Assembly (NCBI RefSeq): GCF_900232105.1
Contig: NZ_LT934425.1
Span: 2,730,001 to 2,762,000 of the forward strand
Reading direction: 5' to 3'
DNA from: Candidatus Kuenenia stuttgartensis
Lineage (GTDB): Bacteria > Planctomycetota > Brocadiia > Brocadiales > Brocadiaceae
DNA: 32,000 nucleotides
The first letter of the stretch is position 1; the number at the start of each line of letters is the position of its first letter. Shown here in pieces: positions 3,403-31,245 of the stretch. A program made the translations under genes and the position numbers. The notes below the pieces were generated by a model. That model did not search any database. It saw nothing but the letters and a program-made list of their open reading frames with translations, and had not been told where the DNA came from.

Positions 3403-3530
3403 CTTCTATCGTTAGTCGCGACACGATGTCGCATAATTGATTGTACTAAAAGAAGATTTTCTTCTTGAGTGTACTAAGCATGTTCCTGCTTATTCCTACG
3501 TGAGCGTGCTACCATTGCGCTGACGACGGG

Positions 3531-4225
3531 GTGCGAAGCCTCACGGACAACGTACCGAATTGAGTCGAAATGGCGACAGGCAGACCCCTCCGGAAAACCT
3601 ATCCGGTTAAGGGCTAGGAACGAATGATATGATGAAAATATATGAATGTCCGCACGCATCGTCAATGAGCGACAGACCTACTAGGTTTAACAGGTCGAAG
3701 GTTATTCCCCAGTGAATAGCATGTTGGTAAAGTTGCAAGTCTCTAACGTGCTTGCACGGAACTGTAGAACCACCGGTGTCCAGGACGCATCTAAGTCATT
3801 TACAGGGTCAATTATACGGAACGTGGAAACTCAGACCTTCGCCCTATGGGCAGGCTAACCGTGAGGCATGCTGTTGGAGGACTGGGGGTGAGATGCCATA
3901 AGGAAGCGAATGCTTTTCTGTAATGGAAGAGATACCGGTTGAAATATTACCGGCTCAGTAATGAGGCTGATAGTTGGCAGGTGCCTTATTACGTGAACAT
4001 TGAATGAATCAGTTGAAAGAAGGGAACGCAAATGACGGGTGCTAAGCCTGGTGCCCCCTTCGTTTTTTTTGATATACTGACAGTCAGTTATTAACGTGAA
4101 GAAATTTATTAGCGGGTTTCTCCATAAGAGAAGCTTAAACAGGTGCTTGAGCTGTATGATGGGAAACTATCACGTACAGTTCTTAGGAGGGAATCGGGCA
4201 GCAATGCCCGTGACCTATCCGGTAC
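3531..4225 (+). ncRNA. ORF-less group II intron ribozyme (about 695 nt, no intron-encoded protein)
   Basis: 5' GUGCG at 3531. A 9-bp helix GCCUCACGG (3538-3546) / CCGUGAGGC (3859-3867) closes a ~330-nt domain I. The 34-nt domain V, GAGCUGUAUGAUGGGAAACUAUCACGUACAGUUC (4149-4182), has the AGC triad, a GAAA loop and the AC bulge of the group II consensus. Domain VI has a CGGGCA-GCAA-UGCCCG hairpin, an unpaired A and a ...GGUAC 3' end at 4225. The track shows no sense-strand ORF of 60 aa or more inside it. Confidence 0.8.
4018..4070 (+). terminator. Intrinsic-terminator-like hairpin plus T8 tract inside the intron domain IV remnant
   Basis: GAAGGG (4018-4023) pairs with CCCUUC (4056-4061), enclosing GGGUGC (4037-4042) / GUGCCC (4051-4056). 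It is followed by CG and eight T (4063-4070). The stem contains G-U pairs, so strength is uncertain. Confidence 0.35.
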
Positions 4226-4241
4226 AAAAAGGAGAAATCAT

Positions 4242-4973
4242 ATGGCGATATCGAGACAAGCAATACTAATTGGATCCCCAAGCGTAAAACCGGAACTTCC
4301 TGGCGTGACCACTGATATGGGGAATATTAAACAGTTTTTATTGTCGAATAAGGGTGGGGCTTGGAGGGCAGACGAAATAGTAACCCTTTCAGATCCCAGT
4401 TCCGCCGCTGTGGATGCGCAAATCGAATCGGCTAGGTACAAAGATTATGTTTTTATTTCTTGCTCTGGGCATGGTGAGCATCGTGTCGGAAAAGGTCTTG
4501 ATGAAACGGTAATGTATGTAAAAGAAAATGAGACTGTTTCGATTAGCAGTATAAATCCTAGAAACAAACGTCACTTGGTCATAGTCGATGTGTGTCGAAA
4601 ATTAATTAGAGTCGAGACAATGGAAGAAACGAGAGCCGCAATGAAGGCATTTATGAAAAGTGCGGCCATACCCATAGATTATAGAAAAATATTCGATGAC
4701 GCAGTAATGGCTAACCCTGAAGGTCGTATTGTTGCATATTCATGTGATATCAACCAATCTGCTGGTGACGACGGCAGTGGCGGTGTTTTTACTCAAGAGT
4801 TGTTAGCTGCCCCGAAATATTTTTCGCCTACAAACAACAATCAATATGGCATTGTCAAAATAAATGCAGCTTTTGATCAGGCAAAAACAATGACATACGC
4901 AAAAAATGCACCTCAAAGCCCTGTATTTAATGCTGGGAGACGTATGGACTTTTACCCATTTGCTATTGTTTAA
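4242..4973 (+). CDS. Stand-alone caspase-like cysteine protease (peptidase C14 fold)
   Basis: 243 aa from ATG 4242, with SD AAAGGAG 4228-4234 and a 7-nt spacer. Motif order is caspase/metacaspase-like: AILIGSP..., catalytic His in FISCSGHGEH (His codon 4470-4472) and catalytic Cys in LVIVDVCRK (Cys codon 4593-4595). The track ORF start at 4143 lies inside intron domains V/VI and is rejected. Confidence 0.75.
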   Translation: MAISRQAILIGSPSVKPELPGVTTDMGNIKQFLLSNKGGAWRADEIVTLSDPSSAAVDAQIESARYKDYVFISCSGHGEHRVGKGLDETVMYVKENETVSISSINPRNKRHLVIVDVCRKLIRVETMEETRAAMKAFMKSAAIPIDYRKIFDDAVMANPEGRIVAYSCDINQSAGDDGSGGVFTQELLAAPKYFSPTNNNQYGIVKINAAFDQAKTMTYAKNAPQSPVFNAGRRMDFYPFAIV

Positions 4974-5438
4974 ACGGTGAGAAAATGATCACAGATTACA
5001 ACAAAGACAAATGGGGGCCACTTGAACTAAAACATCTAATTTTAGATACAGAGGAATTTATTGCCTTTATAGATCATCGTAATGATTTAGACTGGATAAC
5101 AAGTAAAGAGTTTGATGCAAAAGGCCCGCAATCTCCAGAGAAGCATCACGAAATATTAAATACGGTTGCATTGTTGGAATGCAAACCAATTGTTCATCTT
5201 TCCGAAAACAACCAGTTAAATTTTAAAAGATTATTAGGTGAGGCTTTGGCAAGGAGCCTAAAGCATGATTACAAAAAGGCTTCGAGTATACTCGTCCATG
5301 CTGAAAACTTCCTTATGGATAGAGGTAAGGAAATATCGCGTCAATGGTATTTAAACCGAGCAGGTATAACCTCACTAATCATATTTGCAGTTGGTGTTCT
5401 CTTTTGGGTTTTTCGTGATTTAAGCATAAAAGTCCTAG

Positions 5439-7442
5439 CGTGAGTTTATCACGAAATAAGGTGTAAGACAAAGACATCAAGTTGCAATCCAATGATTTGT
5501 ATCGGGTTGCGACTTTTTTTGTCTAAAAAATTATGTATACACTGAATAATACTATATTTATATTGCATTATATGCCTGTATATACTATTATACACGGAGT
5601 ATTAATCTATTACGTATACACTAACAACTAATAGCCATGGCTACCATTCAATCTAAAAACTCCAGAGGTTATAAATATTGGTATATTGTCGAATCGCGGC
5701 GCGTTAACGGCAAGCCCAGGCCCATCGTCCTGGCCTATCTTGGCAAGGCAGACGATTTATTAAAACAACTGCAAGGTCTTACCGAAAAATTACGGCTCAA
5801 ATCTTATTCACATGGCGCGGTAGCCGCATTGCTAAGTGTGGCCAATGCCCTGGACGTCCCTTCCGTGATTAATAAATATATAAAGTCGCCACGGCAGTAT
5901 TGTGCTAAAAAACCTGTTCGAAATAATCTGACCGCCGGAAGTACCCTCTTGTTGGGTGCCGTGGGGAGAGTGTGTGTGCCTACCAGCAAAAGAGGATGGT
6001 GGGATTGGGCAAAGACGACTACTGCCGAATACTTACTCAGACACAGCTTGAGTAAAATAGACAGTCAGCATTTCTGGGATTTGATGGATGCACTTCCTGA
6101 AGAATCCATTGCAGAAATCGAGCGCGAATTAATTGAAAAGACATTTAAAACATACAACCTTCAAAGCGACACACTGTTTTTTGATACAACCAATTTTTTC
6201 ACGTATATCGACACAACTAATCTGCGATGCACTATTGCCCGGCGGGGGAAAAACAAACAAAAGCGATACGATCTCAGGCAGGTCGGGTTGGCGATGGTCG
6301 TTACACGTAACGACATGATACCGTTGTTTCACCATACCTATCAGGGGAACATGGCGGATGCAAAGGTGTTCAGCGCGGTTCTTGAGACGATAAAAGACAG
6401 GATGACCGGATTAGGTTTCGACAGCAAAAAGCACACTATTGTTTTTGATCGTGGAAACAATTCCATGGACAATATGGCTATTGTAGAGAGATTGGCATTG
6501 CATTACGTTGGAGCGCTTACACCGTATCATCACAAGCAGTTGGTAGGGGATGCCATGTGTAATTTCAGGGAATATGACGTTGACGGCAGTAAGATACAGG
6601 TGTACCATGACAAACGGGTTATTTGGGGGCAGGAAAGAACCGTTGTCGTATTTATTTCCGAGAAATTAAAGGTTGGGCAATTAAGGGGAATGTCTCAGTC
6701 TCTGGAAAAGGCAGAACATCAGTTAAAGCTCTTACAGCAGCATCTGTGTAATCCAAAGGGAAAGATGCGGGACAAAGAGGGTCTGGAGGATACGATAAGA
6801 AGTGTAGTGAAATGTCAATTTGCGAAGGATGTTATCGATTGGTCGTTAAAAGAGGTATCTGAAGGCAAGTTTCAATTGAATTTTTCAATCGACCAGAAAA
6901 AGCTCGAAGAAATAGAAGGGGAACTGGGGTTCAGGATTCTTATGACAGACCATCACGATTGGGATACCGCGGACATTATAAAAGCCTACTATGGGCAATC
7001 AAAAATTGAACATGCCTTTAGAAATCTCAAGAACCCCTATCACCTTGCTTTAAAACCGCAATTTCACTGGACGGATCAGAAAATCAGGGTGCATTTTTTT
7101 ATTTGCGTCCTCGGATACCTAATGGCGGCGATTGTGTGGTATCAGGCAAAAGCGCACGCACAATTTAGTGGAACGTTAGATACCCTGTTAGACACCCTTA
7201 ATAATATAAGGCTTTCTGCTATGCTTGAAGAAACAAAGGCCAGAGGGAGAGTTAAGGCTACCTACAAATTGGAAGAAATGTCCGACAAGGAATCTCTGTT
7301 GATGAATGCGTTAGGCATTATGGATTTCCACAAACATCGGCTGAAACTTCAAGGACTCAGTGTATACAATTGATGTTGTGCTTAACGCATTGACTGTATT
7401 TATGTTACGTTGCTTCATGCCTTATTTTGTGATAAACTCACG
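5439..7442 (+). mobile_element. IS1634-group (IS4-related) insertion sequence, about 2.0 kb
   Basis: Terminal IRs CGTGAGTTTATCACGAAATAAGG (5439-5461) and CCTTATTTTGTGATAAACTCACG (7420-7442) match at 22/23 positions. Flanked by CTAG at 5435-5438 and 7443-7446. Contains a single transposase ORF. Confidence 0.85.
5637..7373 (+). CDS. IS1634-family DDE transposase
   Basis: 578 aa. The N-terminus KNSRGYKYWYIVESRRVNGKPRPIVLAYLG is characteristic of IS1634-group transposases. Candidate DDE residues lie in LFFDTTNF, IVFDRGNNS and YGQSKIEHAFRNLK. Confidence 0.85.
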   Translation: MATIQSKNSRGYKYWYIVESRRVNGKPRPIVLAYLGKADDLLKQLQGLTEKLRLKSYSHGAVAALLSVANALDVPSVINKYIKSPRQYCAKKPVRNNLTAGSTLLLGAVGRVCVPTSKRGWWDWAKTTTAEYLLRHSLSKIDSQHFWDLMDALPEESIAEIERELIEKTFKTYNLQSDTLFFDTTNFFTYIDTTNLRCTIARRGKNKQKRYDLRQVGLAMVVTRNDMIPLFHHTYQGNMADAKVFSAVLETIKDRMTGLGFDSKKHTIVFDRGNNSMDNMAIVERLALHYVGALTPYHHKQLVGDAMCNFREYDVDGSKIQVYHDKRVIWGQERTVVVFISEKLKVGQLRGMSQSLEKAEHQLKLLQQHLCNPKGKMRDKEGLEDTIRSVVKCQFAKDVIDWSLKEVSEGKFQLNFSIDQKKLEEIEGELGFRILMTDHHDWDTADIIKAYYGQSKIEHAFRNLKNPYHLALKPQFHWTDQKIRVHFFICVLGYLMAAIVWYQAKAHAQFSGTLDTLLDTLNNIRLSAMLEETKARGRVKATYKLEEMSDKESLLMNALGIMDFHKHRLKLQGLSVYN

Positions 7443-7959
7443 CTAGGAGAATCCGCATTTATTATCAGTCTTGCAATGGTTTCTGGCGGGCTAGGGGCAT
7501 TTTTATCAATTATTTTCCGAATGGGAAAAGAATCCATAGATTGTCTTGCAGGGAAAAAGCTCCATGAACTCGAAAGCATGTATCGGATAATAGCTGGAAT
7601 GTTATCGGCCCTTTTGGCCTCATTGCTTGTGCGATCTGAAATGTTTTTGCCTGCTTTTTCTAAAATGAATCATATTGAATTGTCAATAATTGCTATAGGT
7701 TTCATCGCTGGTATGAGTGAAAGATTTGCTCCTTCAATACTATCAAAATTAGAAAAGAATAAAAAAATTGTATAACAATGCTAATTAACGCGCCGGTTAT
7801 TGGCAGCGTTATACATTAATTAAGGTTGAAAAAGAAGGAATGTGTCATAATGAAAAGAGCTCGGCAAATCCCTATATTCGCTAATTGAATTGCCCGGCTT
7901 TAAAATACAGTCCATGGCCTTGGAAGAGAGAAACAAGAAGGATTGAAAGGTGAATGTGA

Positions 7960-10955
7960 ATGACATCTGAAAGACAAATAGAAGAACTTTAATCAATAAT
8001 CTTAAAGACCTTAAATACACATACCGCGATGATATTCTGGATAAGGTCTCGCTTGAAGCAAATTTCAGAGAGCACTTTCAAAGACTCAATAAAGTAAATC
8101 TGAATGATTCTGAATTTGCACGACTTAGAGACGAAATTATTACTGCTGATGTATTCACAGCAGCAAAAACATTGCGTGAAATAAATACTTTTCGCAGAGA
8201 TGATGATACACCCCTGCAATATACCCTGGTTAATATCAAGGACTGGTGCAAAAACGAGTTCGAAGTCATCAATCAACTACGAATAAATACTGAAAATAGT
8301 CATCATCGTTATGATGTCATCTTACTGATTAATGGTGTTCCGGCTGTTCAAATTGAGCTTAAAACTCTTCAGGTAAAACCCAAAAGGGCGATGGAGCAGA
8401 TTGTTGAATACAAAAACGACCCCGGAAATGGTTTTACTAATTCACTTCTCTGTTTTATGCAACTTTTTATTGTCAGTAACGAAAACAATACTTATTACTT
8501 CGCTAATAACCATAAAGACCATTTTGCTTTCAATGCGGATGAAAGATTTTTGCCCATCTATCAGTTAGCTGATGAAGCCAATAAGAAAATCACCCATTTG
8601 CATGATTTCGCCGAAAGGTTTCTTGCAAAATGTACACTGGGACAAATGATCAGCCGTTATATGGTACTAGTGGTTAGCGAACAGAAATTAATGATCATGC
8701 GGCCGTATCAAATTTACGCTGTCAAAGCTATTGTGGACTGTATTCATCAAAACAGAGGAAATGGCTACATCTGGCACACCACCGGAAGTGGAAAAACCCT
8801 TACATCTTTCAAGGCATCAACACTTCTAAAAGATAATCCCGATATTGAAAAATGCTTATTCGTGGTTGACTGCAAAGACCTCGATAAACAGACCCGAGAT
8901 GAGTTCAACAAGTTTCAGGAAGGTTGTGTTGAAGAAAACACCAATACGGAAACACTGGTACAGCGGTTGTTATCAGAAGACTATGCTGATAAAGTGATTG
9001 TTACCACTATCCAGAAACTTGGTCTTGCCCTTGATGAAAACAGTAAAAGAAACCAAAACAGTAAGCAAAAAGGCAGACTGACCTTTAAAGAAAGGTTAAT
9101 GCCGCTTCGTGATAAAAGGATTGTCATTATTTTTGATGAATGCCACCGCGCACAGTTTGGCGATAATCATAAAGCCATCAAAGAGTTCTTCCCCAAAGCA
9201 CAGCTTTTCGGTTTTACCGGAACGCCTATATTTGAGGAAAACGCAACTTATAAACAAGTGGATGGTACCGTAGGCTCTTACAAGACAACCAAAGATATTT
9301 TTGAAAAACAACTGCACGTTTACACCATTACTCACGCCATTGACGATGGCAATGTCCTTCGTTTCCATGTGGATTATTTCAAGCCGGATAGCAAGAAAAA
9401 GGTTAAAACAGCAGATACCATCAGTAAAAAAGCCGTTGTGGATTCGATTCTTGACAAACATGACTCTGCCACTAATGCAAGACGATTCAACGCATTATTG
9501 GCGACAGGCTCAATAAATGACGCTATAGAGTATCATGAACTCTTCAAAGAGATACAAAAAAAGCGTGTACAAGAGAATGAAGATTTTACGCCATTAAATG
9601 TTGCCTGTGTCTTCTCACCTCCTGCCGAAGGAAATAAAGATGTCCAGCAGATTCAGGAGGATTTGCCGCAGGAAAAAGCGGACAACGAACAAGAACCGGA
9701 TAAAAAGAAAGAAGCTCTAAAAGCAATTATTGTTGATTATAACAAGCAATACGGGACAAACCATCGTATTTATGACTTTGATTTGTACTATCAGGATGTA
9801 CAGAAGAGAATCAAAGACCACAAGTATAGCAATGCCGATTATCCGCATAAAAACAAGATCGATTTGGTTATCGTTGTCGATATGCTGTTAACCGGCTTTG
9901 ACTCAAAGTATCTGAATACCCTTTATGTTGATAAAAATTTAAAGCAACATGGATTAATACAGGTTTTTTCTAGAACAAACCGGGTGTTGAATGACACAAA
10001 ACCCTATGGAAATATCCTTGATTTTAGAATGCAAACCAAAGAGGTCGATGAGGCCATCGCACTCTTTTGCGGTCAGGGTACAGAACGGGCTAAAGAAATA
10101 TGGTTGGTTGACCCGGCTCCTGAAGTAATTGAAAAATACAAAAAAGCAGTAGCCGCATTAGGTGATTTTATGCAAGCAAGCGATTTGGTATGCGAACCAC
10201 AAGAAGTTTATAATCTTAAAGGAGATACTGCGCGAATTAACTTCATTAACCGCTTTAAAGAAATACAACGTGTGAAAACTCAGTTAGACCAATACACCGA
10301 TCTAACACCTGAACAAAAAGCGCATATTGAAACACTTATTCCCGAAGACCAATTACGTTCGTTCAGGAGCTCTTATTTAGAAACAGCCAAACAGTTAAAA
10401 GAAAGACAGCAAAAAGAAGGAATCAATGCAGATCCCTCTGTGCAGCAACTGGATTTTGAATTTGTACTGTTTGCCTCTGCTGTAATAGACTACGATTACA
10501 TTATGAAGCTGATTTCCCGTTTCACACAAAACAAGCCGGGCAAACAGAAAATGACACGGGAGCAACTCATCGACCTGCTTAGCTCAAGCGCCAATTTGAT
10601 AGATGAACGTGAGGATATTGTGGCGTATATTAATAGTTTGGAAGTGGGTAAGGGTTTAGACGAAAAGGAAATAAAAGAAGGTTATCAGAAATTTAAAACT
10701 GAAAATGCCGAAAAAGACATGGCGGAGGCAGCCTGCAAGCATGGGCTAGAGCCGGAAGCATTACAATCATTTGTAGATGCAATTATTGACCGAATGGTTT
10801 TTGACGGCGAAAAACTCAGCGATCTGATGGAACCACTTGGATTGAGTTGGAAAGACAGAACAAAAAACGAACTGGAATTGATGGAAGATTTAATACCGTT
10901 GTTGAAAAAACTTGCCGGTGGGCGCGAGATTGCTGGGTTGACAGCGTATGAGTAA
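7960..10955 (+). pseudogene. hsdR: Type I restriction enzyme R subunit (EcoR124I-like HsdR) with an N-terminal frameshift
   Basis: Uninterrupted ORF 8172-10955 (927 aa from TTG). It has the nuclease region YDVILLINGVPAVQIELK and helicase motifs HTTGSGKT, IIFDECHR, GFTGTP and QVFSRTNR. The HsdR-like N-terminus continues upstream in the same frame to 7971 with no start codon. ATG 7960 (MTSERQIEEL, then stop) is in the neighbouring frame. Adding one T to the T-run 7988-7990 gives MTSERQIEELLINNLKDLKYTYRDDILDK... Confidence 0.8.
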
Positions 10956-11844
10956 TCAATTATCAATAGAAAAAATAATATACACAATCCGAGACTTTCA
11001 GGTGATGCTTGATCGTGATCTTGCCGTACTGTATGACGTGGAGACAAGGGCTATCAATCAGGCAGTGAAGCGGAATATGGGCAGATTCCCTACTGAATTT
11101 TGTTTTCAGCTATCGGATGAAGAATTTGAAAATTGGAAATCACAGATTGTGATTTCCAATGAGGATAAGATGGGACTCAGAAGACCGCCATACGCCTTCA
11201 CAGAGCAAGGCGTGGCAATGCTATCGGCAGTCTTACGGAGCGAAACTGCCGTAAAAGTAAGCGTCAATATTATGAAAGCCTTTATAGCGATGAGACGATT
11301 TTTGACGGAGAACGCTTATATATTTAAACGCATAGATACTATTGAGCAAAAACAAATAAGAACAGATAGTAAAGTCGATGAAAACAGTAAAAAAATTGAA
11401 ACTGTTTTGAATGCAATAGAAGCGAAAGCGTTACCGCAACGGCAGGGCATTTTTTATGAAGGTCAAGTATTTGATGCTTATACATTTGTGTCTGATTTGA
11501 TACGCTCGGCAAAGTCTTCGATTATCCTTATCGACAATTATATTGACGAATCAATACTTACTTTTTTCACAAAAAAGAAGCGAGATGTTACGGTTACAAT
11601 CTATACAAAAAAAATCTTAAAACAATTCGCCTTGGATATAAAAAAATTTAACGAACAGTATCCTTTACTTTCAGTTAAAGAGTTCTCCAAATCACACGAT
11701 AGATTTCTCATAATAGATGAAGATGCTATTTATCACATCGGTGCTTCACTGAAAGATCTGGGGAAAAAATGGTTCGCATTTTCCAAAATGGAATTCTCAG
11801 TGGCGGAAATGCTGATGAAAATTAAAGGACAAGAAGAGAAATGA
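10948..11844 (+). CDS. ORF6N (KilA-N-related) DNA-binding domain protein with a PLD/HKD-like C-terminal domain, embedded in the R-M operon
   Basis: 298 aa. The start overlaps the hsdR stop (ATGAGTAA). The N-terminal pattern IRDFQVMLDRDLAVLYDVETRAINQAVKRNMGRFPTEFCFQLS...RRPPYAFTEQGVAMLSAVLRS is typical of ORF6N. The C-terminus has IILIDNYID ... HDRFLIID ... IGASLKDLGKK, resembling an HxKx4D...GSxN motif with K replaced by R. Confidence 0.8.
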   Translation: MSNQLSIEKIIYTIRDFQVMLDRDLAVLYDVETRAINQAVKRNMGRFPTEFCFQLSDEEFENWKSQIVISNEDKMGLRRPPYAFTEQGVAMLSAVLRSETAVKVSVNIMKAFIAMRRFLTENAYIFKRIDTIEQKQIRTDSKVDENSKKIETVLNAIEAKALPQRQGIFYEGQVFDAYTFVSDLIRSAKSSIILIDNYIDESILTFFTKKKRDVTVTIYTKKILKQFALDIKKFNEQYPLLSVKEFSKSHDRFLIIDEDAIYHIGASLKDLGKKWFAFSKMEFSVAEMLMKIKGQEEK

Positions 11845-12249
11845 ACCACGAAAAATGGCGTTGAATATTGGCTGGCACGTGATTTACAGCACTTGCTGGG
11901 ATATACCAAATGGGACAATTTTTTGAATGTAATCTCCAAGGCGAAAACAGCCTGTGAAGTCTCCGGGCATGAAATCCAAGACCATTTTGCCGACGTCGGG
12001 AAAATGGTTGATCTGGGGTCGGGCAGCCAGCGGGAAATTAACGATATCATGCTTACCCGCTATGCCTGTTATCTGATTGCTCAGAACGGAGACCCTGCCA
12101 AACAGGAGATTGCCTTCGCTCAGACCTATTTTGCTATGCAGACACGCAAGGCGGAATTGATTGAGCAACGCTTACTTGAATCCGAGAGGGTATCAGCCCG
12201 AAAAAAGCACCAAATAAGAGAACACAGCGCTCTCGTGGTTAACGGGTAG
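11845..12249 (+). pseudogene. Truncated copy of dinD, covering roughly residues 21-137 of the full-length paralog
   Basis: Starts in frame immediately after the ORF6N stop with ...KNGVEYWLARDLQHLLGYTKWDNF. About 90% nucleotide identity to 14541-14900 over a 150-nt stretch aligned by hand. Homology ends after ...SERVSARKK near 12205. It lacks the N-terminus and the C-terminal half. Confidence 0.85.
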
Positions 12250-12280
12250 CAAATTAAAAGTTTTATTGAGGTTTGATATT

Positions 12281-12556
12281 ATGGCTAAGATCAATGTATT
12301 AGATAAAGAAATCGCAATATATTCTTACAATGATGATGACTACATTTCTTTAACGGATATGGTTAAAAACATTGAAAACGGACTTTCTCTGATTGAAAAA
12401 TGGCTCCGCAATAAAAACACTATCGAATTTATGGGAATTTGGGAAGAAATGTATAACCCGGATTTTAAATCCACCGAATTCGAGGGAATTAAAAATCAGG
12501 CAGGCTTGAACAGGTTTGTTTTATCTGTGAAACAGTGGGTAGAAAAAGAGGAATGA
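12281..12556 (+). pseudogene. 3'-truncated KilA-N domain gene
   Basis: ATG 12281 is preceded by GAGG. MAKINVLDKEIAIYSYNDDDYISLTDM...WLRNKNTIEFMGIWEEMYNPDFKSTEFEGIKNQAGLNRFVLSVKQWVEK matches the N-terminal ~90 aa of the ~250-aa KilA-N proteins common in R-M loci. The ORF stops at the TGA of the ATGAACCACGG repeat. Confidence 0.7.
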
Positions 12557-12595
12557 ACCACGGAAGACCTAGCGCGGCCTTTGGCCGCAACCAAA
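12553..12595 (+). repeat. 43-nt junction repeat, copy 1 (ATGAACCACGGAA...GCGCGGCCTTTGGCCGCAACCAAA)
   Basis: 40/43 identical by hand alignment to 16536-16578. Contains the hairpin GCGGCC-TTT-GGCCGC (12574-12588). Confidence 0.85.
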
Positions 12596-12622
12596 AAGGT
12601 GATTTTTAGTTTATTATAAAGT

Positions 12623-14269
12623 ATAGTAGTATCCTCGTAAATAGTAATCAGACAATTTGGAGGACACTACTTATGAATAAGTTGATGGAATTATATCGAG
12701 ACAGGATCGTGGGTGCAATAAGCGGTCTGTACAGGATTCGTTTTCGCGGGACATTGCGGTGGTTGGCCAGTGAGCGTGGGATGGGAACATTCATGAACCA
12801 AGCGAGAATTCTGCTTAAGGATTTTTCCGGTTGGGTCAATGGGCTTACGGCACAGGTGCGAGACAGTTGTGAATCGCGGGCGAAAGATTTGGGTATCGAG
12901 GTGCGGTATTTGATGAGCAGCGGTGTTGATAAGGAGAAGTTGGCTCGCCAGATCGCGGCGGATAAGAGGATTACGGAAGGTTCCATCTGCCTGTTGAGTG
13001 TGGTAGAGCCTTGTATTGCGCCGATGGTCAAGGGCAACAAGGCCAGCAAGAAGCTCGAGTTGGTAATGGCGCCCCGCAAGTGTGTCTTTGTGTATCATTA
13101 TTTTAATGATCCAGTGTTTGGTTTTGGTCATGTTCGTATCCAGAGTTGGGCGCCGTTTAATATTTTCATTTGTCTCAATGGTCGTCATTGGCTGGAGCGG
13201 CAACTTCAGAAGCAAGGTATTGATTATGTTAAGGACGGCAACTGTTTTGTGCGTATAGAGGATATTGCGGCTGCGCAGGTTCTGCTCCATGAGCAGCTTA
13301 AGACTGACTGGGCGAAGCTGCTGAACGGGCTTGCGTTAGGCAGTTGCCCGGCATTGTCGCAGATTCTTCGTCCGTTGGAACCGGAGTATTACTGGTCTGC
13401 GGATGAGACGGAGTGGGCGACGGACATCATGTTTAAATCGGTTGAGGCATTGGAGGAGTTGTTTCCATCGTTTGTTCATCATGCGATGCGGGTTTGCGAC
13501 AGTTCTTCGGTGATGAAGTATTTGGGTAGGCGTAACCTTGCAGGCGCTGCCCCTGATGAGGTTATCAGCGACTATCGAAGACGCTATGAAGGTATACGGG
13601 TCAAGCACAGTGTGAATTATAATTCAGTGAAGATGTATAACAAGAGCGGTAGTCTCTTGCGTATTGAGACAACGATCAATAATACGCGGGACTTTAAGGT
13701 CTTTCGGAGTCCCAATGATGATGAAGGCAAACCGGCGTCATGGCAGAAGATGCGTAAGGGCGTAAGCGATCTTCATCGACGGTGTGAGGTGAGCCAACAA
13801 TGCAATGATCGTTATGGGGATGCTTTGGCGGCGGCTCAGGTAGAGGAGAAACTGAAAGAAGTGGTGAGCAGCGCTTGTAACAAGGTTGTCAAAGAGGGCA
13901 AGAGGTATCGAGGTTTGAATCCCTGGCAGCAGGATGATTACCAGATGCTGATGTTCCTGTCCAAAGGCGAAAACGCGATAAATGGATTCCGCAACCATGA
14001 TTTGCGTAAGTGGCTTTACCGGGAATCCGAACAATCCGGCAAGGATCAGCAAAAGAAATATTCCGGACGAACGACCCGACGGATAAAGATGCTGCGGGCA
14101 CACGGTCTAATCCGCAAAGTTCCGAGGGCCAACCGCTATGTTTTGACGGAGAAAGGCCAGAAGTTCTCTTGTTCACTGATGACCGCTTCAGCCCTTGATA
14201 TTAAAGCACTTACGGAAATGGCGGCATGAAAAACACGCATAAAAAACAAGAAATTGATGGATAGTAGTA
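12623..14269 (+). mobile_element. Candidate insertion carrying the 518-aa gene (unclassified)
   Basis: 9-bp direct repeats ATAGTAGTA at 12623-12631 and 14261-14269. The interior is visibly more G+C-rich than the flanks: hand counts give 36/60 at 12721-12780 and 34/60 at 13321-13380, against 15/60 at 12601-12660. The last ~85 nt, including the gene's 3' end, recur as a degenerate solo copy at 16650-16735. No terminal inverted repeats found. Confidence 0.45.
12673..14229 (+). CDS. Conserved-looking hypothetical protein of unknown function with a C-terminal winged-helix-like segment
   Basis: 518-aa uninterrupted ORF, with GGAGG 8 nt upstream of the ATG. The C-terminus RRIKMLRAHGLIRKVPRANRYVLTEKGQ resembles a wHTH. 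I could not identify a DDE, HUH, recombinase, RT or nuclease signature by eye. Confidence 0.7.
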   Translation: MNKLMELYRDRIVGAISGLYRIRFRGTLRWLASERGMGTFMNQARILLKDFSGWVNGLTAQVRDSCESRAKDLGIEVRYLMSSGVDKEKLARQIAADKRITEGSICLLSVVEPCIAPMVKGNKASKKLELVMAPRKCVFVYHYFNDPVFGFGHVRIQSWAPFNIFICLNGRHWLERQLQKQGIDYVKDGNCFVRIEDIAAAQVLLHEQLKTDWAKLLNGLALGSCPALSQILRPLEPEYYWSADETEWATDIMFKSVEALEELFPSFVHHAMRVCDSSSVMKYLGRRNLAGAAPDEVISDYRRRYEGIRVKHSVNYNSVKMYNKSGSLLRIETTINNTRDFKVFRSPNDDEGKPASWQKMRKGVSDLHRRCEVSQQCNDRYGDALAAAQVEEKLKEVVSSACNKVVKEGKRYRGLNPWQQDDYQMLMFLSKGENAINGFRNHDLRKWLYRESEQSGKDQQKKYSGRTTRRIKMLRAHGLIRKVPRANRYVLTEKGQKFSCSLMTASALDIKALTEMAA

Positions 14270-14315
14270 CGGAATATCCAGAAAGGCTGGAAGAGAATTG
14301 AAACACGGATGCTTC

Positions 14316-14462
14316 GAGAAACTCAGCGATTTAATGGAGCCGCTGGACTTAGACTGGAAAGAGCGGACAAAAAAGGAACTGGAATTGATGGAAGATTTAA
14401 TACCACTATTAAAAAAACTTGCCGGCGGGTGCGAGATTGCGGGGTTGGGGGCGTATGAATAA
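14316..14462 (+). pseudogene. Remnant of the 3' end of a second hsdR gene
   Basis: Translates to EKLSDLMEPLDLDWKERTKKELELMEDLIPLLKKLAGGCEIAGLGAYE plus a stop. This is colinear with the last 48 codons of hsdR (10809-10955), with roughly 80% nucleotide identity by hand count. No upstream hsdR sequence is present. Confidence 0.9.
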
Positions 14463-14482
14463 GAAAAGAGGAGTGCGATAAA

Positions 14483-15328
14483 ATGGAAAATGATTTGATT
14501 TACACAATGACCGCAACCTTTGAAGGGCATGCTCAAACAACAGAAAACGGGGTTGAATACTGGCTTGCGCGAGACTTGCAACAGTTGTTGGGCTATAACG
14601 AATGGCGTAACTTCCTCAATGTCATCACTAAGGCGAAAACAGCCTGTGATGTATCCGGACATGCCGTCGTCAACCATTTTGTTGATGTCAACAAAATGGT
14701 TGATCTGGGATCCGGCAGCAAGCGGGAAATCAGCGACATCATGCTTACCCGCTATGCCTGTTATCTGATTGCTCAGAACGGAGACCCGGCCAAACAGGAG
14801 ATTGCCTTTGCGCAGACCTATTTTGCCATGCAGACGCGCAAAGTGGAATTAATAGAACAACGCTTGCTTGAATCAGAGCGGGTTTCAGCCCGTAAAAAGC
14901 TCTCTGCCACAGAAAAGGAATTATCGGATGTGATCTATGAACAAACAGGCGGCAATCAGAATTTTGCGCTGATTCGCAGTAAAGGTGATCATGCTTTGTT
15001 CGGAAAAACCACGCAGGCCATGAAAGCCCAATGGCGGGTTCCTGACAACAGGCCTCTGGCGGATTTTGCTCCCACGATTATTCTAAAAGCCAAGGATTTC
15101 GCAACGGAAATCACCATCCACAATGCCCGTGAAAACAAGATGAAAAATGAGTCTGAAATATCTGGCGAGCATGTGACCAACAATAGGGCAGTGCGGGACA
15201 CCCTGCTGAATCGAGGCATCCGTCCGGAAAGCCTGCCACCGGCTGAAGATGACAAAAAGGTAGAGCGCCGTCTGGATACGGCTCAGAAGAAAACAATCAA
15301 AAACCCTGATAGACTGGAAGAATTATGA
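14483..15328 (+). CDS. dinD: DNA damage-inducible protein D homolog
   Basis: 281 aa. Colinear resemblance to E. coli DinD, for example ...LLGY..W..F..VI.KAK.AC..SGH...DHF.....MV.IGS...R...DI.LSRYACYL..QNGDPAKP.IA..QTYFA.QTR. SD GAGGAG lies upstream. Confidence 0.9.
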   Translation: MENDLIYTMTATFEGHAQTTENGVEYWLARDLQQLLGYNEWRNFLNVITKAKTACDVSGHAVVNHFVDVNKMVDLGSGSKREISDIMLTRYACYLIAQNGDPAKQEIAFAQTYFAMQTRKVELIEQRLLESERVSARKKLSATEKELSDVIYEQTGGNQNFALIRSKGDHALFGKTTQAMKAQWRVPDNRPLADFAPTIILKAKDFATEITIHNARENKMKNESEISGEHVTNNRAVRDTLLNRGIRPESLPPAEDDKKVERRLDTAQKKTIKNPDRLEEL

Positions 15329-16539
15329 ATCACAAAAGGCACGAAAAGCACGAAAAAAAACAATTGGTGCCAAAGCTGAGATTTCCTGAGTTTCGGGATA
15401 AGGGGGAGTGGCAAGAAAATGAACTGAAGCAGTTTTTAACAGAAAGTCGCATCTTGGGTAGCAAGGGAAATACTGCAAAGAAAATCACAGTAAAACTTTG
15501 GGGAAAAGGCGTTTTTGAGAAGAACGATGAAATCCAAGGTAGCATCAATACGCAATATTACCGAAGAACAACAGGTCAGTTCATTTATAGCAAACTTGAT
15601 TTTCTCAATCAGGCATTTGGTCTTATTCCTGAACACTTAGACAGTTATGAATCCACCGTTGATCTTCCATGTTTCGATATAAGCCAAGGTATCAGTCCTG
15701 TTTTTTTGCTTGAATATGTAAAGCGAAAAGATTTTTACGAAAAACTAGGTGAAACAGCAGATGGTAGTAGAAAAGCAAGGCGAATACACGCTGATACGTT
15801 TCTATCTTTTCCTATCTTTATGCCTTCGCCTCAAGAACAACAAAAAATCGTCGATTGCCTCACCACCTTCGATGAACTCATCACCGCCGAAGCCGGGAAG
15901 CTCGAAGCCTACAAAGCCCATAAAAAAGGGCTGATGCAAAAGCTCTTCCCTGCCGAAGGGGAAACCATGCCGGAATGGCGGTTCCCTGAGTTTCGGGGTA
16001 AGGGGGAGTGGGAGCATTATGTAATTAACGATATTGCAAAGGTTACTACAGGGAATAAAGACACTCAAAATAAATTTGATGATGGAGAATATCCATTTTT
16101 TGTAAGATCACAAACTGTTGAGAGAATAAACTCTTATTCGTATGATGGCGAAGCAATATTAACTTCCGGTGATGGTGTCGGTGTTGGCAAAAATTTTCAT
16201 TACATTATTGGAAAGTTTGACTTTCATCAAAGGGTTTATTGTATATATGATTTTGAAAAAACTGTTTCAGGACATTTTGTTTATCATTATTTTACTGAGC
16301 ATTTTTACAAAAGAGTAATGCAATTAAGTGCTAAAAATTCCGTTGATTCAGTAAGAATGGCAATGATTACAGAAATGCCTATTAGCTTGCCAAGCAATGA
16401 AGAACAACAGAAAATTACAACTTGCCTCTCTGCCCTCGATAACCTCATCACCGCCCAGTCTAAGAAAATCGACACCCTCAAAATCCATAAAAAAGGCTTG
16501 ATGCAGGGGCTTTTCCCGTCTGCTGAGGTGAATATATGA
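15325..16539 (+). CDS. hsdS: Type I R-M specificity subunit
   Basis: 404 aa. Two half-repeats, each beginning (L/W)RFPEFR(D/G)KGEW and ending in the conserved helices QQKI..CL...D.LITA...K......HKKGLMQ.LFP. The start overlaps the dinD stop (ATGA). Confidence 0.92.
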   Translation: MNHKRHEKHEKKQLVPKLRFPEFRDKGEWQENELKQFLTESRILGSKGNTAKKITVKLWGKGVFEKNDEIQGSINTQYYRRTTGQFIYSKLDFLNQAFGLIPEHLDSYESTVDLPCFDISQGISPVFLLEYVKRKDFYEKLGETADGSRKARRIHADTFLSFPIFMPSPQEQQKIVDCLTTFDELITAEAGKLEAYKAHKKGLMQKLFPAEGETMPEWRFPEFRGKGEWEHYVINDIAKVTTGNKDTQNKFDDGEYPFFVRSQTVERINSYSYDGEAILTSGDGVGVGKNFHYIIGKFDFHQRVYCIYDFEKTVSGHFVYHYFTEHFYKRVMQLSAKNSVDSVRMAMITEMPISLPSNEEQQKITTCLSALDNLITAQSKKIDTLKIHKKGLMQGLFPSAEVNI

Positions 16540-16633
16540 ACCACGGAAAACTTGGCGCGGCCTTTGGCCGCAACCAAATTCAAAATACGAATATCGAAAT
16601 ACGAAACAAATTCAAATGACAAAAAACCCAATG
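16536..16633 (+). repeat. Junction repeat, copy 2, extended by a ~55-nt AT-rich tail
   Basis: The first 43 nt match 12553-12595 at 40/43. The whole ~85-nt unit from 16551 recurs in inverted orientation at 18840-18927: GCGC, a hairpin, CA(A/C)CCAAA, then CGAAATACGAAA...AAACAAATTC.AAA. Confidence 0.75.
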
Positions 16634-16649
16634 CTCCAAACTTTACGTA

Positions 16650-16735
16650 ATCCTCATCTAATCAATGCCTTACGGTTATGCATTTTGAAAAACGAGCATA
16701 AAAAACAAGAAGTTGATGGATAGTAGTACGGAAGG
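16650..16735 (+). repeat. Degenerate solo copy of the right end of the 518-aa-gene element
   Basis: TGAAAAACGAGCATAAAAAACAAGAAGTTGATGGATAGTAGTACGGAA (16686-16733) against TGAAAAACACGCATAAAAAACAAGAAATTGATGGATAGTAGTACGGAA (14226-14273). Upstream, AATGCCTTACGGTTATGC resembles AAAGCACTTACGGAAATGGC, the last codons of the 518-aa gene. Confidence 0.7.
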
Positions 16736-16802
16736 CACGGAAGAGGGAAAGAACATTCCGTGATTTCGGTGCTTTCCGTGGTTAAAAATAAGGAGTTAAA
16801 CA

Positions 16803-18410
16803 ATGAATGATACAATGCAAAAACAATTAGGTGCAACCCTCTGGAAGATTGCCGACCAACTCCGCGGCGCTATGAATGCCGATGACTTCCGCGATTATAT
16901 GCTCTCTTTCCTGTTTTTACGCTACCTTTCAGACAACTATGAAGTTGCATAAAAAAAAGAGCTTGGAAAAGATTACCCGAAGCTGAAAGAAGACGACAAA
17001 AGAACGCCCCTCTCAGTCTGGTATAAAGAAAACAAGGATGATACGGCTGTATTTGAAAAGCAGATGCGCCGTAAAATCCACTATGTAATCAAGCCCGACT
17101 ATCTCTGGCGCAGTATATACGAGCTGGCAAGAACCCAAAGCGATGACCTCCTTAAAATCTTGCAAGCCGGGTTTAAGCATGTTGAAAATGACTCCTTTGA
17201 GAGTACATTTCAGGGCTTATTTTCTGAAATCAACCTGGACTTTGAAAAACTTGGCAAAAACTATTCTTTCCGTAACGCAAAACTCTGTACGATTGTAACC
17301 AAAATCGCTGAAGGGCTTTCCGGGTTTTCTACCGAGAGTGATATTCTAGGCGATGCTTATGAATACTTAATCGGTCAATTTGCTTCCGGTTCAGGGAAAA
17401 AAGCCGGAGAGTTTTATACACCACAGCAAATTTCAACCATACTGTCCCGAATTGTTACATTGGATAGTCAAAATCCGAGTTCCGGTAAAAAGAAAAAACT
17501 TAAAAAAGTCCTCGATTTCACCTGTGGTTCAGGTTCACTTCTTTTAAATGTAAGGAAACAACTTGGTCCCAATAGTATCGGGCAGATATATGGGCAGGAA
17601 AAAAACATTACCACTTATAACCTTGCAAGAATGAATATGCTGCTCCATGGGTTAAAGGATTCTGAGTTTCAAATTCATCATGGAGATTCACTTCTCAACG
17701 ACTGGGACATATTAAATGAAATGAACCCAGCTAAAAAGCTTGAAAGTGATGCTGTGGTTGCCAATCCTCCTTTCAGTTATCGTTGGGAACCAAACGAGGC
17801 TTTAGCCGACGATTTCAGGTTTAAAAGTTATGGCCTTGCACCTAAATCCGCAGCAGACTTCGCCTTTTTGCTTTATGGTTTTCATTTTTTAAGCGATGAA
17901 GGAACCATGACAATTATTCTGCCTCATGGTGTTCTTTTTCGCGGAGGCGTTGAAGAACGAATCCGCACAAAATTACTCAAAGATGGAAATATTGATACAG
18001 TCATAGGCTTACCGGCTAATCTTTTCTTCTCAACGGGTATTCCGGTATGTATCCTCGTACTGAAAAAATGCAAAAAGTTTGACGATGTTTTATTCGTCAA
18101 TGCCAGTGAATACTTTGAAAAAGGTAAACGGCAGAATTTTCTTTCAGAAGAACACATCGATAAAATCATAGATACATATCAATACCGAAAAGAAGAAGAG
18201 CGGTATTCCCGATGCGTTTCGATGGAAGAAATAAAGAAGAACGAATACAATCTGAACATTTCGCGGTATGTGAGTACGGCAGAACAGGAAGAAGCTATTG
18301 ATATCAAAAAAGTCAATAAAGACTTAGCTGAAATTGAGAAGACGATAACCAAGGCAAAGAAAACGCATAATCAGTTTCTTAAAGAACTTGGCTTAGCAGA
18401 GTTACCATGA
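16803..18410 (+). pseudogene. hsdM: Type I R-M N6-adenine DNA methyltransferase subunit with an in-frame TAA
   Basis: ATG 16803 follows SD AAGGAG. The HsdM N-terminal pattern is MNDTMQKQLGATLWKIADQLRGAMNADDFRDYMLSFLFLRYLSDNYEVA, then TAA at 16950-16952, and the same frame continues KKELGKDYP.... The longest intact ORF, 17064-18410, carries motif I DFTCGSGSLLL and motif IV VVANPPFS. Confidence 0.85.
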
Positions 18411-18555: not shown

Positions 18556-18798
18556 GGGTCACCTTGACCAGTGATTATAAGTCGGCGGGTACGAGAGTAG
18601 CTACTATGAAATAAAAGGAAGCATTCCCGATTTTTTGTAACTTCAGCTTATTTTTGGTGGACGGAGTATTAACCCTGACAGGGTTTTGGAACCCTGTCAG
18701 GGTTGTCTTGAAGCATAATACAATATTGAACTACAAAAAATCGGGAATGCTCCCCAATAAACAATGGTAAAAGGTAAAATCACTAATCAAGGTGTGAC
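18556..18798. mobile_element. MITE-like element (family A), second copy, with a different nested element (family B)
   Basis: TIRs CACCTTGACCAGTGATT (18560-18576) and AATCACTAATCAAGGTGTGAC (18778-18798). Ends are near-identical to 2105-2520 and in the same orientation. Inner IRs GCATTCCCGATTTTTTGTA (18621-18639) and TACAAAAAATCGGGAATGC (18732-18750) surround the double palindrome AACCCTGACAGGGTT/AACCCTGTCAGGGTT (18671-18704). Confidence 0.7.
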
Positions 18799-18839
18799 TC
18801 TATTTTTCCCTTAAAAACTAAAATTGTTACGGTTTTGTT

Positions 18840-30880: not shown

Positions 30881-31245
30881 AGGAGCATTCCTGATTTTTT
30901 GTAACAGTTTAGATTTTTGGAAAAACAAAAATGCTCGTTCCCAAGCTCCGGCTTGGGAACGTAATTGCGTTGGGAGCTCTAGCTTCCATTTAGCAAGTAA
31001 GCGAAGCTTTGCGTATTATTCGGTTCAAAAGAGGTCTCCAAATATCTTGGGTAACATACTGAAAAGCCTCCAAGCTGACATCATGGGTTCATTCCCTTTT
31101 CCATTCGAAGCTGGAGCTTCTCAAACAATCCCGTTCCCAAATCGGAGCTTGGGAACGAGCGGTTTTTTTCATAGGACTAAAGTGTTACAATCTTTTGTAA
31201 AAAAACAAAATGTGTGAAGATATACAAAAAATCGGGAATGCACCC
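30881..31245. mobile_element. ~365-bp nested palindromic MITE-like element (family B ends)
   Basis: Four concentric IR layers: GGAGCATTCCTGATTTTTTGTAAC (30881-30904) / TACAAAAAATCGGGAATGCACC (31223-31244); GTAACAGTTTAG / CTAAAGTGTTAC; GCTCGTTCCCAAGC / GCTTGGGAACGAGC; GGAGCTCTAGCTTC / GAAGCTGGAGCTTC. The outer IR matches the inner IR of 18556-18798. Confidence 0.65.

Follow-up and report, generated by a model that had tools for sequence, protein, structure and literature searches.

The short string ATGAAYCAC(GGAA) recurs at the gene junctions and truncation points of a Type I restriction-modification (R-M) locus in Candidatus Kuenenia stuttgartensis. The locus lies within a 32,000-nt stretch of contig NZ_LT934425.1 (positions 2,730,001 to 2,762,000 of the forward strand), which we refer to as the window and in whose coordinates all positions are given. 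In particular, we found that the string is an ATGA stop/start overlap followed by AAYCAC(G/A)(G/A)AA, the latter being the first in a run of 2-3 CACGRAA units that specify the HsdS leader (MNH-G/E/K...); this assignment is made because the junction between dinD and hsdS is the same in three independent operons. It is not a signal dedicated to recombination. Rather, its recurrence in the locus probably reflects a conserved hsdS start that was carried through a patchwork of two operons, together with insertion of a mobile element, here referred to by its 518-codon open reading frame (ORF518), at the repeat unit of that start.

Exact copies of ATGAAYCAC are present four times in the window, all on the plus strand, at 11841, 12553, 15325 and 16536 (copies 1 to 4), and the TGA within each is the stop codon of an open reading frame (ORF), namely ORF6N, KilA-N', dinD and hsdS, respectively. 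The initial annotation of this DNA had noticed that four consecutive genes end in the TGA of the motif and that the ATG at 15325 is the start of hsdS, both of which are confirmed by the ORF coordinates. It had also listed a degenerate copy, ATTGAAACACGGA, at 14297-14309 and an inverted copy, TTTCCGTGGTT, at 16774-16784; both are there, the former 5-6 nt before the homology to the hsdR 3' end begins (14315/14316) and the latter separated by 18 nt from the ATG of hsdM (16803). Dinucleotide shuffles contained a mean of 0.63 copies of ATGAAYCAC, with at least four in 1 of 100 shuffles, a comparison to be read with the note that copies 2 and 4 belong to the same repeat family, and hence are not independent, and that the pattern was picked post hoc. 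When up to 3 mismatches were allowed in a 13-mer the motif was barely enriched (25 matches against 18 expected), and no further copy was found in the other 27 kb of the window.

Copy 3 provides the clearest view of what the motif is. It lies where a complete dinD gene (dinD_B, encoding DNA damage-inducible protein D; 14483..15328, plus strand; NCBIfam PRK11525, 2.9e-111) meets an hsdS gene with two target-recognition domains (15325..16539, plus strand; Pfam Methylase_S). The dinD stop is the TGA of copy 3, the hsdS stop is the TGA of copy 4, and dinD and hsdS overlap in ATGA, as they do in the related operons L135 and L138-L142. Together with three CACRAAA units, copy 3 (ATGAATCACAAAAGGCACGAAAAGCACGAAAAAAAAC, 15325..15361, plus strand) forms the native start of hsdS and encodes the leader MNHKRHEKHEKK. 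The closest relatives of DinD (90-93% identical) are found in other assemblies in operons with the order hsdR-dinD-hsdS-(AAA_13 or DUF559)-hsdM, and in L135, L137 and L138-L142 the dinD/hsdS junction reads gaagaat(t/a)|ATGAACCAC(G/A)(G/A)AA, followed by 1-2 more CACGRAA-like units. Specifically, hsdS begins with ATGAACCACGGAAAGAACGGAAAAAAG in L135 (encoding MNHGKNGKK), with ATGAACCACGAAAGACACGAAAAGCGCGAAAAAAAG in L137 (encoding MNHERHEKREKK) and with ATGAACCACAAAAGGCACGAAAAGCACGAAAAAAAAC in L138 (encoding MNHKRHEKHEKK, as in the window), so that the number of units in the leader varies between 2 and 3. Because the same junction is present in all of the close-relative operons, copy 3 is an inherited native gene junction and not a scar. 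Moreover, the purine run that precedes copy 3 is the conserved end of dinD (...RLEEL*).

The initial annotation had raised the possibility that the motif serves translational coupling. This idea is best supported for copy 3, with its conserved ATGA overlap and AACCAC, where translation of hsdS would be coupled to that of dinD through the overlap and the preceding purine-rich run. It does not extend to copies 1, 2 and 4; the frame that follows these copies ends after 7, 18 and 27 codons, respectively, and because such short ORFs alone follow, coupling is impossible there. A functional gene follows copy 3 only. The arrangement resembles the ATGA-overlap coupling of other operons in the shared ATGA, in the Shine-Dalgarno-like purine run ahead of it and in the presence of an overlap at every junction of an orthologous operon (in L135 there is a 4-nt overlap at all four junctions). 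It differs in that the downstream gene is real at copy 3 only, and in that conservation reaches past the ATGA into a repeat-derived leader. (We also considered whether the hsdS leader might act as a regulatory RNA in which the CACGAAA units pair with the segment that encodes RFPEFR; this was rejected, as z was between -0.1 and -1.2 relative to shuffles and there was no covariation.)

As a whole, the locus is decaying and combines, in a mosaic, pieces of two diverged operon copies (A and B, 82% identical) with fragments of accessory genes (ORF6N and KilA-N). Its parts follow one another in the order hsdR_A, ORF6N, dinD_A', KilA-N', the 518-codon ORF, a remnant resembling the dinD 3' end, hsdR_B', dinD_B, hsdS, a spacer and hsdM, all on the plus strand. 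Since the 3' end of hsdR and the 5' part of dinD are each present twice, we conclude that pieces of two operon copies have been joined. In particular, hsdR_A is complete (8172..10955; Pfam HSDR_N, ResIII, T1R_D3-like and EcoR124_C), and hsdR_B' (14315..14462) is the final 148 nt of a second hsdR, 82% identical to positions 10808-10955 of hsdR_A; dinD_B starts 20 nt past hsdR_B', and the same hsdR-20 nt-dinD spacing is found in L135 and L138. Likewise, about 350 nt of dinD (14544-14900) are duplicated at 11852-12208 with 83% identity, where they make up the pseudogene fragment dinD_A' (11858..12208, approximately codons 18-139). This fragment lacks about 17 of the 5' codons, ends near codon 139 and is 82-83% identical to dinD_B by alignment and by blastn. 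(Just 3' of dinD_A', CTCGTGGTTA at 12232-12241 is an inverted partial copy of AACCACGAG that, with copy 1, brackets the fragment; it may be a chance occurrence, a 7-mer of the AACCACG type being expected about twice per strand in 32 kb.)

Two accessory genes of the mosaic end in the motif. The ORF6N-domain gene (10948..11844; Pfam ORF6N) is full length, its homologues of 293-300 aa covering 95-97%, and stops at the TGA of copy 1; relatives of ORF6N on viral contigs match its N-terminal domain only. The KilA-N' fragment (12281..12556, within an ORF at 12266-12556; Pfam KilA-N) stops at the TGA of copy 2 and is cut after codon 89 (VKQWVEK|), where relatives at 73-80% identity, which are 267 aa long, run on as ...VEKTNSKG. 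In other Type I operons, homologues of ORF6N (~294 aa) and of KilA-N (~270 aa) are encoded directly upstream of hsdS, with 4-nt or 1-nt overlaps. Because these homologues adjoin hsdS elsewhere, an ORF6N stop codon that overlaps an hsdS-type ATG is the expected native arrangement.

Consistent with such an arrangement, 13 nt of copy 1 (ATGAACCACGAAAAATG, 11841..11857) are identical to the hsdS start of L137 (ATGAACCACGAAA). Copy 1 meets dinD_A' at a GAAAA microhomology, and homology to dinD begins at approximately 11848-11858. Copy 2 (ATGAACCACGGAAGA, 12553..12567) is an hsdS-start-like unit that forms the left flank, and target, of the ORF518 element; when the two flanks of the element are joined, ATGAACCACGGAAGA followed by ACGGAAT is a close match to the intact hsdS start of L135 (ATGAACCACGGAAAGAACGGAAA). 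The degenerate copy, in turn, belongs to a second dinD/hsdS junction stub (14278..14309), in which CCAGAAAGGCTGGAAGAGAATTGA, a remnant of the dinD 3' end (...PERLEEN*), precedes the degenerate motif TTGAAACACGGA. The 24 nt before the degenerate copy resemble the 3' end of dinD (CCAGAAAGGCTGGAAGAGAATTGA compared with CCTGATAGACTGGAAGAATTATGA), and the whole stub agrees with the end of dinD_B plus copy 3 at 22 of 32 positions. On the basis of these resemblances, copies 1 and 2 and the degenerate copy appear to descend from hsdS starts that were left behind by deletions.

The end of the locus is also degraded. The hsdM gene (16803..18410) contains an in-frame TAA at 16950-16952 that splits it into ORFs of 49 aa and 448 aa; this stop follows codon 49 and lies beside a run of eight A residues, at a position occupied by an Ala codon in L135. 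The R-M system is probably inactive, given that hsdM is interrupted by this TAA and that the same split is shared by contigs L001, L002 and L004.

The element inserted at copy 2 is a mobile unit of about 1.70 kb (12568..14270, plus strand) that carries ORF518 at 12673-14229, with CCTAGCGCGGCC at its left end and GGATAGTAGTAC at its right end (14259-14270). Its GC content is about 50%, compared with about 40% in the surroundings. Its boundaries are given by contig L003, from an assembly that also carries the R-M locus at ~99.7% identity; here a second copy (757-2463), 99.65% identical over window positions 12568-14271, lies inside a coding gene. The flanks of this insertion (CAGCAGAATG|CCTAGCGCGG ... 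GTAGTACG|AAGACAC) are unrelated to the window, and the split gene encodes MPITKELSNIRKLEAV...DFISRM | ...DTNRQFDEINKRF. Because the L003 copy begins past the copy-2 motif and has unrelated flanks, the mobile unit begins 15 nt after the ATG of copy 2, and the motif is outside it. The initial annotation had reported that copies 2 and 4 extend to 43 nt, of which 40 are identical (93%), with a GCGGCC-TTT-GGCCGC hairpin included, which we could reproduce; since the unit starts 15 nt after the ATG, this 43-nt repeat is made up of 15 nt of flank and 28 nt of element. The first ~100 nt of the element contain a GC-rich hairpin (12574-12588) and a second hairpin in the 5' untranslated region (12625-12636/12660-12671) that covers the ribosome-binding site and in which one base pair covaries.

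Relatives of this element are numerous. More than 4540 homologues of ORF518 were found, mostly on contigs of 1.7-2.4 kb, as is typical of a multi-copy element at which assemblies break, and sediment and freshwater metagenomes contain thousands of relatives. Eighty metagenomic copies (L143-L222), 1695-1716 nt in length, share the ends of the element, and among 51 distinct copies or contexts, drawn from metagenomes and genomes, the length of the unit is mostly 1695-1716 nt. Of the 43 copies with enough flank to be counted, a CRCNRAW unit abuts the left end in 34 and (A)ACCAC is present in 17; the right end is invariably GTAGTAC, followed by RGAW-like bases. Moreover, the 4-mers that border the element on the left and on the right are identical in 15 of 35 copies (permutation mean 4.1, maximum 11). 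Direct repeats of 4-7 nt at the borders are perfect in some copies (GGATTAG in L193, AGATTTC in L151 and GAAGAA in L203) and imperfect in others, including the recent one in L003. Terminal inverted repeats are absent from the ORF518 element, its ends (CYTRGCGCGGCC... and ...GGATWGTAGTAC) not being complementary. Because 34 of 43 left ends adjoin such a unit, the family appears to insert next to CACNRAW units, which may occur through target duplication or through recombination at a short core. (The idea that the element always lies inside complete hairpins was rejected, an inverse unit being present within 220 nt in just 5 of 34 copies.)

Copy 4 differs from the others in its setting. It lies at the hsdS stop, which is the place where hsdS and the next gene overlap in ATGA in relatives, and it forms both the outer left arm of a hairpin (ATGAACCACGGAAAA, 16536..16550) and the left flank of a 179-nt derivative of the ORF518 element that has lost the ORF (16551..16729). 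In the derivative, a left end of 24-28 nt, which includes the hairpin at 16557-16571, and a right end of 48 nt enclose ~107 nt of unrelated sequence; by blastn the derivative matches the full element at 100% over 24 nt and at 93.8% over 48 nt. (Its interior, 16579-16662, contains short repeats of the AATACGAAATACGAAACAAATTCAAATGAC type that resemble the TAAATCCGAAACAAAT repeats beside metagenomic ORF518 elements, in the right flanks of L158 and L172.) The rest of the hairpin (GGAAGGCACGGAAG ... TTCCGTGATTTCGGTGCTTTCCGTGGTT, 16730..16784) includes the inverted copy at 16774-16784, which is complementary to copy 4 at 11 of 11 positions. With the derivative removed, the spacer between hsdS and hsdM reads AACCACGGAAA-(N)ACGGAAG-GCACGGAAG...TTCCGTGA-TTTCGGTGC-TTTCCGTGGTT; this reconstituted spacer, in which one base (T to C) is assumed, folds at -36.8 kcal/mol (z = -7.5), and none of 200 shuffles was as good. 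Copy 4 and the inverted copy before hsdM are thus the two arms of one hairpin, copy 4 being the left one.

This hairpin resembles the repetitive extragenic palindromic (REP) sequences of other bacteria. A scan of our sequence collection for AACCACGGAA-N15-45-TTCCGTGGTT found hairpins at at least 120 loci in many phyla; among the matches listed, 62 of 121 carry extra units on both arms and 3 of 121 are preceded by ATG. An ATG prefix was rejected as a feature of the hairpin family on these same listed matches. In at least two real genes elsewhere, which encode a GGDEF-EAL protein and a MiaA-like protein, the reading frame ends at the TGA that precedes AACCAC. Hairpins composed of 2-3 tandem NNCACGGAA units and their inverse were found in Verrucomicrobiota, Planctomycetota, Desulfobacterales, Acidobacteriota, Gammaproteobacteria and other phyla (L015-L134), with runs of T upstream and runs of A downstream; because the runs are placed in this way, the hairpins are not ordinary intrinsic terminators. 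The R-M locus had no match in Rfam, none of the window ORFs that were scanned matched Y1_Tnp (RAYT), and a literature search for the CACGGAA heptamer gave chance matches only. In L090, ~70-95 nt 3' of a hairpin at 314-360, GTAGTACGAAAC is followed by TTTCGTG units, like a solitary right end of the ORF518 type. In L137, a DUF559 gene between hsdS and hsdM (8162-8699) is bracketed by AACCACCCCG...CGGGGTGGTT and by CCCCTCCAGAGGAGGGG/CCCCTCCTTTGGAGGGG repeats; this cassette extends the C-terminus of HsdS, and downstream of it a 72-nt unit is tandemly duplicated.

We envisage the following course of events, the order of which we infer from the arrangement of the locus. Copy 3 is the native dinD/hsdS junction. 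Because the accessory genes of the decaying mosaic also abut hsdS in their home operons, stubs of such junctions would survive at copy 1, at copy 2 and at the degenerate copy. At copies 2 and 4, the ORF518 element and its 179-nt derivative inserted 15 nt past the ATG, and the inverted copy is the opposite arm of the hairpin at copy 4. The type of unit found in the hsdS leader is also the one that builds the REP-like hairpin family of many bacteria.

Several observations weigh against this account. Only close operon lineages, with DinD at least 90% identical, have the motif at the hsdS start; in Leptonema illini, whose DinD is 86% identical, dinD and hsdS are separated by a noncoding 62-nt spacer with CGCGGAG units, and hsdS begins MKKREQKGRG. 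(Because this spacer carries CGCGGAG units, it suggests that the hsdS leader derives from a repeat that turned coding in some lineages.) Copy 1 and the degenerate copy match the hsdS start over just 12-14 nt, too short a stretch to prove descent from it, and no intact hsdR_A-ORF6N-hsdS operon with this start was found. ORF6N/hsdS junctions elsewhere, which involve other hsdS families, read GTGACGGG or ATGGGTGA and do not contain the motif. Copy 4 comes after an hsdS gene and not before one, and it is the hairpin rather than a junction stub that accounts for it. The CACNRAW unit on the left could be part of a longer form of the element, L003 alone lacking it, and neither sequence profiles nor a fold search found a known transposase fold in ORF518.

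An alternative is that every copy is the end of a small mobile repeat, similar to a REP or to a miniature inverted-repeat transposable element (MITE), that inserted separately at each site; the hsdS leader would then be one half of such a repeat that has been domesticated. A small repeat family had been among the proposals of the initial annotation, and part of it holds: AACCACGGAA is the outer arm of the widespread CACGGAA hairpin family, some members of which abut the stop codons of unrelated genes. The variable number of units (2-3) in hsdS leaders and the noncoding CGCGGAG spacer of L. illini also fit this alternative. However, no second hairpin arm was found at copies 1 and 3 or at the degenerate copy, copy 3 is coding, the rest of the window (27 kb) lacks copies, and ATG is found ahead of only the 3 of 121 listed hairpins mentioned above. 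Furthermore, the junction has been inherited vertically with the operon in three lineages, so that the present locus does not require separate insertion. We therefore consider separate insertion of each copy unlikely. (A related candidate, in which 16539-16784 is a MITE with the 11-nt inverted repeats AACCACGGAAA/TTTCCGTGGTT, was rejected: the L003 unit begins 15 nt into the left repeat and has GTAGTAC as its end, and because it excludes both repeats these belong to the host hairpin.)

A dedicated recombination site, whether att-like or a hotspot of microhomology, through which accessory cassettes are exchanged between Type I operons, is in our judgement improbable. The initial annotation had placed breakpoints of truncated genes near the motif, and the truncations of KilA-N', dinD_A and hsdR_B are real, with three truncation points lying within ~15 nt of a motif copy. 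In addition, the same slots hold different genes (dinD, ORF6N or KilA-N before hsdS; AAA_13, DUF559 or the hairpin after it), the DUF559 cassette of L137 is bracketed by AACCACCCCG...CGGGGTGGTT at the same position as AACCACGGAAA...TTTCCGTGGTT in the window, and the join between copy 1 and dinD_A' carries the GAAAA microhomology. Against this, the breakpoints spread from ~10 nt before to ~15 nt after the motif and share no single fixed site, no gene for an integrase, an invertase or another recombinase was found among the ORFs of the 32-kb window, copy 3 is kept as coding sequence in orthologues, and ORF6N/hsdS junctions of other families lack the motif. Nor did structural variants between the motif copies, for which the initial annotation had proposed a search, turn up among 14 contigs of the same species (L001-L004 and L254-L263; many sequencing runs, short-read assemblies only); the order of parts was unchanged in these contigs, which break at the left end of ORF518 or within the duplicated dinD segment. 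What remains of the recombination joint is that the motif is the preferred insertion point of one element and that accessory fragments abut there. (Note that in GCA_900232175.1 the R-M locus is carried by three contigs, L001, L002 and L003, at identities of 98.6-99.97%, hsdR or ORF6N being frameshifted in some of them, which points to a mixture of strains or to heterogeneity among genome copies.)

Finally, it is highly improbable that the pattern is a post hoc 9-mer in an A-rich region, inflated by the 43-nt duplication: that copies 2 and 4 are a single repeat, the weak enrichment of the 13-mer and the ~2 AACCACG-type 7-mers expected per strand would favour chance, but for copy 3 chance is refuted by the orthologous operons, in which unrelated genomes share an identical 13-nt string at this junction, and the statistics of the element flanks refute it for copies 2 and 4, the same unit lying beside 34 of 43 foreign copies, and the excess over shuffles, the common strand and the in-frame stop of all four copies also argue against it.

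The single protein that the ORF518 element encodes, of 518 aa, is without annotation and matches little that is known. The ORF518 family comprises 5326 clusters at 50% identity (E <= 0.001), and Pfam, NCBIfam and PHROGs gave nothing beyond a weak winged-helix match. Matches of ORF518 to sequence profiles of the Protein Data Bank (PDB) were confined to MarR-like C-terminal regions, and tblastn against plasmids detected distant relatives only (25-29%), which are annotated as hypothetical protein or ArsR regulator. AlphaFold yielded a model with a pLDDT of 92.8 and a pTM of 0.83 from an alignment of 68 sequences (with close homologues only, the model had a pLDDT of 47.6 and was unusable). This model has a TBP-like double beta-saddle and a winged helix, with Y141, Y143, Y322, E112, E247, E332 and R330 invariant. 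Foldseek searches with it found no match in the PDB at E <= 1e-3 and TBP-like proteins only in BFVD. Pfam did not match the DEDD transposase domains PF01548 and PF02371 in ORF518, and a DDE, DEDD, HUH, tyrosine-recombinase or serine-recombinase fold was not detected. From the copy number and the conserved ends of the element, we infer that ORF518 itself moves it. It is possible, although we put this forward tentatively, that the CACNRAW arrays and hairpins found across phyla, among them the hsdS leader and the hsdS-hsdM spacer of the present locus, are landing pads or by-products of this large family of unannotated, site-specific elements of ~1.7 kb.

REP sequences and bacterial interspersed mosaic elements (BIMEs), and the insertion sequences that target them (ISPa11, ISPpu9/10, ISPsy8 and members of IS110/IS1111), are among the closest known counterparts in type (PMC1525189, PMC12288879, PMC11208160). 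As in those systems, an imperfect palindrome lies just 3' of a gene with an element at a fixed place in one arm, and the ORF518 element has a strong target preference and lacks terminal inverted repeats. In contrast to REPs and BIMEs, the hairpin here is built of 2-3 tandem ~9-nt CACGGAA units, and the heptamer recurs across phyla; unlike the insertion sequences that target REPs, ORF518 carries no DEDD, DDE, HUH, tyrosine-recombinase or serine-recombinase signature. The 179-nt unit is like a MITE in that it retains the left and right ends of the 1.70-kb element without the ORF, but it has no inverted terminal repeats, its interior is unrelated sequence and not the product of a simple deletion, and one copy was seen. 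With integron attC sites and with hsdS invertons or shufflons the locus shares a short repeat at the borders of cassettes or genes in a variable locus; it differs from them in having no integrase or invertase, no attC-type structure, no inverted hsdS halves and no strain variants.

Accessory genes are embedded in other Type I R-M loci, PrrC in the prr locus and the Campylobacter rlo genes being examples. TgvAB likewise lies inside the Type I cluster of Vibrio cholerae VPI-2 (10.1101/2024.04.04.588119). The present locus is similar in that unrelated genes (dinD, ORF6N, KilA-N, AAA_13 and DUF559) occupy fixed slots between the hsd genes, and dissimilar in that several of the genes are fragments, hsdM is interrupted by a stop codon and a repeat unit borders the slots.

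Elsewhere in the window, an IS4-like element (5433-7448; DDE_Tnp_1 ORF at 5637-7373; 29-nt inverted ends with 97% complementarity) interrupts a gene for 260 aa that lies upstream of hsdR; in L254 and L255, from other samples of the same species, this gene is intact. Domains D1-D4 (3474-3614) and D5-D6 (4147-4223) of a group II intron were recognized by Rfam, with no reverse-transcriptase ORF between them, and the 3' end of the intron and the predicted start of a caspase-like (Peptidase_C14) ORF (4143-4973) overlap. A second repeat is present in two copies (2105-2531 and 18560-18809, ends 95% identical) with inverted ends TCACACCTTGATCAGTGATTATA and is possibly a MITE. Lastly, a short repeat, GGAGCATTCC(C/T)GATTTTTTGTA, is found at 30882, with its reverse complement at 18732 and 31223.

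The motif is accounted for by known kinds of things, and the unannotated ORF518 element is an interesting by-product of its analysis. Each of the three ideas put forward in the initial annotation holds in part. The case calls for caution, as no dedicated recombination system is needed for a motif to seem to mark all junctions and breakpoints of a defence locus; tight stop/start overlaps, a repeat-derived leader that is conserved in the operon and a target-specific insertion element are sufficient ingredients. The hsdR-dinD-hsdS-X-hsdM family consists of Type I operons with fixed accessory slots, of which the window holds a decaying, patched copy. If the CACNRAW arrays and hairpins do serve as landing pads or arise as by-products, ORF518 would represent a new class of DNA transposase or recombinase. 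If ORF518 moves the element, it would be a new type of enzyme among the proteins that rearrange DNA, and would help to explain the widespread short hairpin repeats.

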